A DNA stretch of 64,000 nucleotides from positions 2,976,001 through 3,040,000 of the forward strand of contig OZ220741.1 of the NCBI GenBank assembly GCA_965116885.1, in the 5' to 3' direction. Source of the stretch: Candidatus Latescibacterota bacterium. GTDB lineage: Bacteria; Latescibacterota; UBA2968. Shown in pieces: positions 36,804-37,520 of this stretch. The notes under the pieces are model-generated. The model ran no database searches. It saw nothing but the letters and a program-made list of their open reading frames with translations, and was not told where the DNA came from. A program made the position numbers and the translations under genes. Positions within the stretch are counted from its first letter, which is position 1. The number at the start of each line of letters is the position of its first letter.

Positions 36804-37034
36804 ATGACTGAGCGCATTACATCAATGCCAGCACAAGTTTCTGTGACCTGTGCTCCACTCCCTGGTCAAGAACTCGAACTGGCACATGGTGAGATGGCGA
36901 ATGCATCAGGAGGATGCCTGCTTCCAGGAGAAGATTTGTTTGAGCACGATCCATTTGAGCCTCTTGAAGATATGATCGAAGATGCGGTGGATTATATCGG
37001 AGATACGGTGAGTGAATGGTGGGCTTCCTGGTAG
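36804..37034 (+). CDS. Putative RiPP/secreted peptide precursor 1 (76 aa, double-glycine leader)
   Basis: AAGGAGGT RBS; leader ends LAHGEMANASGG; acidic 39-aa core; upstream of a C39 exporter. Confidence 0.8.
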   Translation: MTERITSMPAQVSVTCAPLPGQELELAHGEMANASGGCLLPGEDLFEHDPFEPLEDMIEDAVDYIGDTVSEWWASW

Positions 37035-37136
37035 CAATCGCGCTACACGCCATAAGACGCTGTTTCTGTTATTCAGGTACTGGACGAAAACCATCTTTTT
37101 TGCTGAATCTTACAATTCATTTATCCGGAGGATATT

Positions 37137-37520
37137 ATGTATAATCGCGTAACTTCAGATTCAGGCGCCGCTTTTGCTTCTTGCACGACACTGCCTATTC
37201 ATCAAACAATGCTCAATGTTAAAGAAATGGCAGATATTGATGGTCTGGGAAGTTTGGCAGATACTATTGATGCAGCGGTAGATTATATTTCGGATGTTGT
37301 TGATGGAATAGGAGATAGTGTTTCTGATTTTGTTGATTCGTTATATTTTTACCCCCAGGATGCTGAGCCTATACACGTGTCTCATCCACATATTTTCCCA
37401 GTACCCCCCCCTGATACAATGAAGATTATTACTTATGAAAGACATACCTGCGACGAGCCGGTCGTGCATTCATCTTGTGGGACTTGTATGTGCTGGGAGG
37501 TGGTAAGGCAGTGTTTTTAG
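37137..37520 (+). CDS. Putative RiPP/secreted peptide precursor 2 (127 aa)
   Basis: GGAGG RBS; first 37 aa align without gaps to the precursor 1 leader; shares AVDYI.D; Pro/His linker and Cys-rich tail. Confidence 0.78.
   Translation: MYNRVTSDSGAAFASCTTLPIHQTMLNVKEMADIDGLGSLADTIDAAVDYISDVVDGIGDSVSDFVDSLYFYPQDAEPIHVSHPHIFPVPPPDTMKIITYERHTCDEPVVHSSCGTCMCWEVVRQCF

Follow-up and report, generated by a model that had tools for sequence, protein, structure and literature searches.

A gene cassette for peptide export, with two short genes at its center, lies in a window of 64 kb (by which we mean the whole stretch of 64,000 nucleotides analyzed, contig OZ220741.1, positions 2,976,001 to 3,040,000) from the genome of a Candidatus Latescibacterota bacterium. 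The two short genes, here termed precursor 1 and precursor 2, are placed between genes for two GT-B glycosyltransferases and those for an exporter (Table 1). We show that they are real genes and paralogues of each other, and that the leader with which both begin typifies a family that joins an N-terminal box of 22 residues (N-box) to a segment resembling the recognition helix of double-glycine peptides.

Two paralogous precursor genes in an export cassette

The first 37 residues of the two precursors align without a gap, and all 12 identities listed by an earlier inspection of this DNA (the original prediction) were reproduced, namely M1, R4, T6, S7, C16, L19, P20, L26, E30, M31, A32 and G36. 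When leader 2 was shuffled, at least 12 identities arose in 2 of 200,000 permutations and the BLOSUM62 score of 41 in 0 of 200,000, which argues against chance; BLASTP of the whole of precursor 1 against precursor 2 gave an e-value of 4e-7. The cores, on which the original prediction was silent, are also alike: after a gap of 14 residues the BLASTP similarity returns (IEDAVDYIGDTV in precursor 1 and IDAAVDYISDVV in precursor 2), and an acidic motif is common to both, AVDYIGDTVSEWW in the former and AVDYISDVVD...GDSVSDFVD in the latter. Precursor 1 (36 homologues) has invariant C38 and S70, precursor 2 has 16 homologues at 55-94% identity, and in both sets length and ends are conserved. The core of precursor 2 comprises a conserved acidic repeat region, from residue 38 to about 75, followed by a variable, cysteine-containing tail in which C105, C117 and C119 are invariant. 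An AlphaFold2 model of precursor 2 from a 17-row alignment had a mean pLDDT of 45, too low to be of use; in the ESM Atlas every match to precursor 1 and to the related protein P0102 was below 0.9, and the nearest clusters, automatically named bacteriocin, BlpC or ComC, serve as a lead only.

The gap-free fit of the two leaders holds in this genome and breaks down in orthologues, where the type-2 leader (that of precursor 2) is 37-44 residues long owing to two residues inserted after S7, to five residues added at the N-terminus, or to both. Two hybrid precursors, P0037 and P0063, combine a type-2 N-box and helix start (..TTLNVEE) with a type-1 helix, Gly-Gly and an acidic cargo, as if the two paralogues had recombined unequally.

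Of the two enzymes encoded upstream, the GT28-like protein matches the NCBIfam murG and MGT models below their cutoffs, and the GT4-type protein has a C-terminal extension of about 100 residues with no family match. Sequence searches of PDB with both recovered only distant GT-B relatives (MurG, OleI; GlgM, MshA, PimA) and gave no clue to the acceptor. Prediction of a complex of the GT28-like protein, the GT4 protein and precursor 1 scored 0.00 in both runs, which, having been made without controls, has no bearing either way. Downstream, the export machinery is of a known type. Its peptidase-containing ATP-binding cassette transporter (PCAT) matches TIGR01193 with 529.8 bits (cutoff 523.85), PF03412 with an e-value of 1.9e-39 and, over two stretches, the cNMP_binding model (1.2e-31). 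Its C39 domain aligns with that of PCAT1 over 129 residues with conservation of the QxxxxDC, HF and ADPG motifs (Q, C, H and D), corresponding to the residues with catalytic roles in PCAT1, Q15, C21, H99 and D115 (PMC6959990); on this alignment the catalytic motifs are intact. The PCAT reading frame opens at a GTG (37521) directly after the precursor 2 stop; given that the transporter in two related loci (L009 and L011) starts at the equivalent of the ATG at 37611 (MNLSLFF), codons 1-30 (37521-37610) are probably untranslated. The PpiC-like protein scores 80.6 bits against TIGR04500, a putative peptide maturation system (cutoff 180; e-value 1.2e-22; positions 87-337 of 340), and is by this comparison a relative rather than a member of that family. 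As no N-terminal hydrophobic stretch is seen in it, it is presumably cytoplasmic.

A family of leaders with two conserved segments

A profile of the leader was used to search six-frame open reading frames (ORFs), as the original prediction had proposed, in 12 related loci and the 64-kb window (E < 1e-3). It matched 30 ORFs in these 13 loci, every one of them between the GT4 and PCAT genes, and in the window only precursors 1 and 2. A wider search, in which 1.84 billion representative proteins were compared with a profile built from 21 leaders (E <= 1e-3), returned 54 matches. Of these, 43 are short proteins (54-147 residues), and in 42 of the short ones the leader is N-terminal or nearly so; the other 11 are long proteins matched in several partial stretches. 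A second profile, made from 13 distant members, returned 20 proteins. Overall the family comprises 130 distinct proteins.

Conservation was counted over those 122 distinct members in which the leader aligns completely, numbering the N-terminal part from the start and the remainder backwards from the putative cleavage site. G at -2 and L at 19 are found in 122 of 122, R at 4 in 121, L at -12 in 116, M at -7 in 114, C at 16 in 113, S at 7 in 99, E at -8 in 98 and P at 20 in 95, while -4 is I, T, A, V, L or M in all 122. The 13 distant members have cargos that share about 25% identity or cannot be aligned at all, yet C16, L19, M-7 and G-2 are invariant in them (13/13).

The last 13 or so residues thus read as a standard double-glycine recognition helix, in keeping with the PCAT-type pattern that had been pointed out in both window leaders (L26, E30, M31, A34 or I34, and G36) and with the adjacent PCAT with its C39 motifs. 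In PCAT1 and LahT the corresponding segment, L(-12)xxxE(-8)L(-7)xx-hydrophobic(-4)-x-G-G, forms a short helix that the peptidase domain accommodates in a hydrophobic groove (PMC6959990, PMC6363468).

The N-box has the consensus R-[IV]-T-S-x-P-x3-F-x-x-C-x-x-L-P. The cysteine noted earlier in both window leaders is general without being universal, being missing in 9 of the 122 members, mostly those with cargos of the DGCFPVP/CYPTPEEE class and their relatives. To our knowledge a conserved cysteine is unusual in a leader. Reading the AFASC of leader 2 as a lipobox was rejected, as no hydrophobic signal segment precedes it and leader 1 has SVTC at this place. Part of the consensus (ItSnPdqvfasCTqLP) aligns gap-free to single leucine-rich repeat (LRR) units of the BspA type, such as VTSIGDYAFAGCTNLQ, at 4-10 bits per unit, with V/I, T, S, F, A, C, T and L in common, and 8 of the 11 long proteins from the profile search are LRR proteins, mostly BspA-type and most of them scoring best on LRR_5. 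This likeness may reflect chance, convergence or shared origin.

The window precursors matched no Pfam-A model at E <= 0.01 and no NCBIfam 20.0 model at E <= 1, and in 39 further members searched against both collections at E <= 1 no model reached its cutoff on the leader. The lone match above cutoff among these relatives was to DUF6861, in P0058, where it lies on the Gly-rich cargo (28.5 bits, cutoff 28). Sub-threshold matches were to Bacteriocin_IIc (e-values 0.05 and 0.61; at best 14 bits against a cutoff of 27.1), TIGR04497 (0.063; at best 13.3 against 32), TIGR03949 (0.22) and Mersacidin (0.18); they fell on or around the glycine-proximal part of the leader and the cargo start, or within the cargo, and none on the N-box. 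We found neither the leader nor the cassette described in the literature, and a Latescibacterota genome paper (PMC12993501), in the portion available, names generic antiSMASH classes only. The suggestions that this is a new leader family, and one unlike the Nif11 and NHLP leaders, have therefore held as far as database models and literature bear on them.

At position -1 the family is relaxed: the 130 distinct members have G (88), L (33), A (3), E (3), Q (1), T (1) or K (1). With G37 precursor 1 has the small residue (G, A or S) of double-glycine leaders and indeed every sequence feature of such a leader, whereas precursor 2 departs from the rule at this one position. The reported Gly-Leu in place of Gly-Gly is correct, L37 being aligned with G37 of precursor 1 and -4, -7, -8 and -12 being in register. 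Precursor 2 belongs to a Gly-Leu sub-family in which 33 of 34 members have L at -1 and one has Q.

Conserved gene-neighborhoods and unrelated cargos

A genome scan with the precursor 1 alignment recovered 12 related loci, all from Candidatus Latescibacterota or Latescibacteria. The order GT28-like, GT4, precursor 1, further precursors, PCAT, HlyD and PpiC-like is seen in 12/12 of them, although one (L002) ends inside the PCAT gene, so that the full order was scored in 11/11 complete loci. The GT28-like gene (86-90% identity) and the GT4 gene (87-92% identity, always directly upstream of precursor 1) are each present in 12/12. One genome has three full cassettes (L005, L006 and L009) in different surroundings and each with its own glycosyltransferase pair, so that the pair belongs to the unit and is not a chance neighbor.

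Some loci are richer (L006 10000-14700; L009 1-12450 and 17570-20209; L010; L011), with more leader-bearing genes for other cargos, small membrane proteins and a gene for a DUF3267 zincin-like protein, and in L006 an insertion sequence (rve). In L006, L009, L010 and L011 there is a third GT4 gene, fused in L009 to the GT28-like gene (5846-8443), and a UDP-GlcNAc 2-epimerase gene lies downstream in all four. A candidate epimerase remnant at 42666-42842 of the window was rejected: the query ORF overlaps the conserved 3' end of the PpiC-like gene and there is no gene remnant. L009 alone also has a radical SAM/SPASM gene, a sigma-54 activator and a UDP-sugar dehydrogenase; occurring in 1/13 loci, the radical SAM/SPASM gene was discarded as a core part of the system. 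Genes for CPBP/Rce1-like membrane proteins stand between the precursors and the transporter in L006, L009 and L011. Proteins of this type are common bacteriocin immunity genes. Those of L009 and L006 (PF02517, e-values 2e-20 and 1e-21) adjoin hydrophobic cargos, and the L011 homologue is 78% identical; given this pairing of Gly/Ala-rich hydrophobic cargos with immunity-type genes, the loci behave like bacteriocin loci.

The leader is modular, with at least six unrelated cargo types downstream of it (junctions are given with a slash at the leader end): 1) an acidic peptide with a SEWWASW end, as in precursor 1, in 13/13 loci (GG/C); 2) the precursor 2 type, in 9 loci (GL/GS); 3) a DGCFPVP or CYPTPEEE type in 3 loci, where -1 is T, A or G; 4) an 82-residue cargo of a 123-residue precursor in L006 (10640-11011; GG/G); 5) Gly/Ala-rich hydrophobic peptides starting with WDW in L009 and L011 (GL/W); and 6) two further types in L010 (GL/C). 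The Gly-Leu form of the leader alone precedes five cargo starts: GS/GG, CLL, WDW/WEW, CHY and WSW. In tblastn searches with precursor 2 the matches to genes with other cargos in L009 (10710-10814) and L010 (11146-11256) end at query residue 37, which places the boundary between leader and cargo there, as had been expected, whereas the match to the L011 gene extends to residue 49.

Several cargo classes have in common an acidic, amphipathic motif, [VI]-D-[YWF]-x-x-D-x-V and/or D-x-V-S-E-[WG], often with a hydrophobic helix before it. Of the 130 distinct members 88 have one or both patterns, where shuffling of the cargos gives an expectation of 0.85.

Proposed roles of the two leader segments

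We consider it rather probable that both precursors are paralogous substrates of the adjacent PCAT/HlyD exporter, bearing a leader in two parts. Residues 23-37 or so would be the signal for export and cleavage, an amphipathic helix that docks in the hydrophobic groove of C39 by analogy with PCAT1 and LahT, and the leader would be cut after residue 37 while the cargo is pushed out, an expectation less sure for the Gly-Leu members. For the protease LahT150 the last 13 residues of a leader suffice (PMC6363468). The N-box lies outside the equivalent segment; by this analogy it would not be needed by the peptidase and would serve something else, a second recognition element being plausible. Most likely it would act as a handle for another protein of the cassette, with the GT-B pair as the preferred partner, the cytoplasmic PpiC-like protein after it and the CAP_ED domains last. 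The pair is preferred because it is specific to the cassette, whereas the combination of CAP_ED transporter and rotamase gene is found generally in cyanobacteria (PMC3140520). The precursors would then be both glycosylated and exported.

Several points weigh against this proposal. Export, cleavage and glycosylation are all predictions from sequence. The members of the family are related, so that the counts of conserved positions are not independent events, and the cysteine of the N-box is not universal. The co-occurrence of the N-box with the glycosyltransferase pair was scored in Latescibacterota loci. In the 13 type-1 genes dN/dS is 0.33 for codons 2-22 (N-box) and 0.41 for codons 23-37 (helix), by which the N-box is at least as conserved as the helix, although low synonymous divergence (pS about 0.2) makes this a weak support. 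Lastly, one transporter would need to accept Gly-Gly and Gly-Leu substrates alike. Structural work describes a very narrow cleft around the scissile bond and explains the Gly-Gly/Ala/Ser rule by it (PMC6959990, PMC6363468), so that Leu at -1 should fit badly, and nothing in the sequence suggests a wider pocket, as the C39 motifs look like those of PCAT1.

This last point leads to the strongest alternative, which we nevertheless regard as less likely than the proposal: the transporter may leave the Gly-Leu leaders, that of precursor 2 included, uncut at this bond. Such peptides might be exported with the leader on, be cut at another bond (for instance after G38-S39) or by another protease, or act as a slow-turnover ligand or regulator of the peptidase domain. 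The narrow cleft, which explains the small residues at both -1 and -2 (PMC6959990, PMC6363468), and the PCAT1-like motifs speak for it, as does the presence, in the cargo class of the window, of G-S or G-G after the leader, itself a pair of double-glycine type. However, a cut after G38-S39 would put G36, D33 and V28 at -4, -7 and -12, with loss of the hydrophobic register, and it is impossible in the other Gly-Leu cargos, where W, C or CH comes first and a second Gly pair is lacking. Moreover, similarity among Gly-Leu precursors with different cargos ends at residue 37 in L009 and L010 (not in L011), and the retention of L at -1 in 33 of 34 sub-family members looks like selection and not decay. 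Should the Gly-Leu bond and its variants indeed be cut, C39 peptidases would be less strict at P1 than the accepted rule has it. Genome searches for PCAT substrates usually look for G-[GAS] after the helix and would miss members with Gly-Leu, -Glu, -Gln, -Thr or -Lys.

It is unlikely, in our estimate, that the N-box is no handle for a second protein and instead makes a longer contact with the transporter, or that it reflects young paralogues exchanging leader segments by recombination. The hybrid leaders of P0037 and P0063 and the low divergence among the Latescibacterota loci (pS about 0.2) fit the exchange of segments, and in PCAT1 extra density near the peptidase domains has been ascribed to the N-terminal part of the substrate (PMC6959990). 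Against both versions, R4, C16 and L19 are fixed in distant members with cargos about 25% identical or unalignable, and the N-box scores no worse than the helix.

Less probable still is a modification of the leader itself, with Cys16 or T6/S7 glycosylated by the glycosyltransferase pair and the sugar serving either as an export licence or for protection, in which case it would be shed together with the leader. The leader alone has residues common to all cargo classes, just as the pair is common to all cassettes, and the unusual conserved cysteine would find an explanation. Yet this cysteine is missing in 9 family members, we know of no precedent, and precursor 1, which is found in 13/13 loci directly after GT4, has possible acceptors of its own in the invariant C38 and S70. 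Finally, that both ORFs are chance frames and their likeness accidental is refuted by the Shine-Dalgarno sequences before both, their 36 and 16 homologues, dN/dS below 0.5, the permutation test and a place between GT4 and PCAT fixed in 12/12 loci.

Returning to the two-part leader, a bolder version of this proposal, which we put forward as speculative and improbable as a whole, is that the N-box, LRR-unit-like and with its near-invariant cysteine, docks any cargo to the GT-B pair, that the products are a new class of glycosylated secreted peptides from an uncultivated Gram-negative phylum, and that C39 cuts Gly-Leu as well as Gly-Gly, breaking the small-residue P1 rule. The main appeal of the system lies in the conserved Gly-Leu site, the modular N-box and the GT-B pairing. 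[quoted passage not shown] Members of the Latescibacterota are described as frequent sponge associates (bioRxiv 10.1101/2024.01.09.574914, PMC12993501), and the loci offer a way to test for competition or signalling by peptides in these uncultivated bacteria.

Other features of the window

Directly 3' of the cassette the GC content falls to 0.40-0.44 (42926-48231), and this stretch, with its methyltransferase and HEPN-like genes, is possibly a small island of defence or mobile genes. Across most of the window, at 1-9000 and 18000-42000, the GC skew has strongly positive values (0.13-0.35). Many long ORFs lie opposite real genes, for example at 33920-35272 on the minus strand opposite the GT28-like gene, without a family match. 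The AAA+/HTH part of both sigma-54 activators of the window is about 41% identical to that of the activator adjacent to the L009 cassette.

Table 1. Features of the precursor genes, the cassette and the remainder of the 64-kb window
Feature	Positions	Strand	Remarks
Shine-Dalgarno AGGAGG	36790..36795	+	8 nt upstream of precursor 1 ATG
Precursor 1	36804..37034	+	76 aa + stop; leader 1-37, acidic core 38-76 with SEWWASW end
N-terminal box, leader 1	36804..36869	+	codons 1-22: R4, T6, S7, C16 (36849-36851), L19, P20
Double-glycine-type recognition helix (predicted), leader 1	36870..36914	+	codons 23-37: L26(-12), E30(-8), M31(-7), A34(-4), G36-G37
Acidic core motif AVDYIGDTVSEWW	36984..37022	+	precursor 1
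Promoter-like site	37109-37138	+	near precursor 2 start
Shine-Dalgarno GGAGG	37127..37131	+	5 nt upstream of precursor 2 ATG
Precursor 2	37137..37520	+	127 aa + stop; leader 1-37 with G36-L37 end
Leader 2	37137..37247	+	N-box codons 1-22 (C16 37182-37184); helix L26, E30, M31, I34; G36-L37 37242-37247
Acidic repeat motif AVDYISDVVDGIGDSVSDFVDS	37275..37340	+	precursor 2
LRR-like stretch, leader residues 5-20	36816-36863, 37149-37196		also in P0053, P0090, P0094, P0097 and others
Strong terminator-like hairpin	33939..33964	+	11-pair stem + T-run, after GMP synthase gene; likely 5' boundary of cassette
GT-B glycosyltransferase, MurG/MGT-like	34076..35329	+	417 aa; GT28 C-terminal domain, PF04101 4.7e-12
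GT4-type glycosyltransferase	35345..36748	+	467 aa; Pfam Glycos_transf_1 1.6e-18
PCAT	37611..40661	+	two cNMP-binding (CAP_ED) domains, C39 peptidase, ABC transmembrane region, ATPase; Pfam, TIGR01193
HlyD-type membrane fusion protein	40662..42044	+	460 aa; HlyD_3, type_I_hlyD
PpiC-type rotamase-like protein	42041..42826	+	261 aa; Pfam Rotamase 6.9e-12
DNA methyltransferase	42926-45604		892 aa; N6_N4 + D12-type domains
ORF	45609-46628	-	339 aa; no Pfam match, sub-threshold NCBIfam match only
Protein with weak HEPN RiboL-PSP match	46891-48231	-	
Two paralogous sigma-54 activators	9701-12895, 13606-16827	-	about 1070 aa; Reg_prop/Y_Y_Y sensor domains
Peripla_BP_6 + Cu/Zn superoxide dismutase domains	7696-9621	+	one ORF

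Relation to known systems

The closest counterpart of the leader is the double-glycine leader that PCAT/AMS transporters (PCAT1-CtA, LahT, ComA) process in class II bacteriocins, competence pheromones and class II lanthipeptides, with which it has in common L-12, E-8, M/L-7, a hydrophobic -4 and G-2. The likeness extends to an adjacent ABC transporter with intact C39, several precursors per locus and, in some loci, CPBP-type genes, and on these features the leader would work like one of this kind. It differs in its length of 37-44 residues, in the 22-residue N-box with near-invariant Arg, Cys and Leu-Pro, and at -1, where in place of G, A or S a quarter of the members have Leu and some E, Q, T or K.

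A two-part organization is reportedly known from the Nif11/NHLP precursors, said to have been described by Haft and colleagues in 2010 as having long leaders in which a part recognized by enzymes lies upstream of the double-glycine cleavage helix, and many different cores. Ours is likewise a long two-part leader with many cores, but a box of about 22 residues takes the place of what is a folded domain of about 60-80 residues there. In comparison to BspA-type LRR proteins (Pfam LRR_5), the N-box corresponds to a single unit, in a peptide unable to form a solenoid.

The known glycosyltransferases of glycocins are SunS-type GT-A enzymes (GT2), whereas those of the cassette are GT-B and match GT28_C/MurG/MGT and Glycos_transf_1 (GT4) models only. 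Glycocin loci (sublancin, glycocin F, pallidocin; PMC12457901, PMC6405829) resemble the present ones in a Gly-Gly-type leader, a PCAT, a glycosyltransferase in the locus and a conserved cysteine in the core. The likeness is one of locus logic only, as the cores show no resemblance and glycosylation is here a prediction.

In its export genes the window locus has the features of the group I/II-type cassettes among the cyanobacterial bacteriocin clusters (groups I, II and VI; Wang et al. 2011, PMC3140520) and of HetC (PMC10986499), namely a long-type PCAT with CAP_ED domains, HlyD, a SurA/PpiC rotamase and arrays of double-glycine precursors; HetC has been found to bind ppGpp in vitro through its cNMP domain (PMC10986499). 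The stem "glyco" is absent from the main text of PMC3140520. Relative to these clusters the host is here a member of the Latescibacterota, the precursors are not of the NHLP, N11P, HetP or DUF37 types, and two (or three) GT-B glycosyltransferases form part of the cassette.

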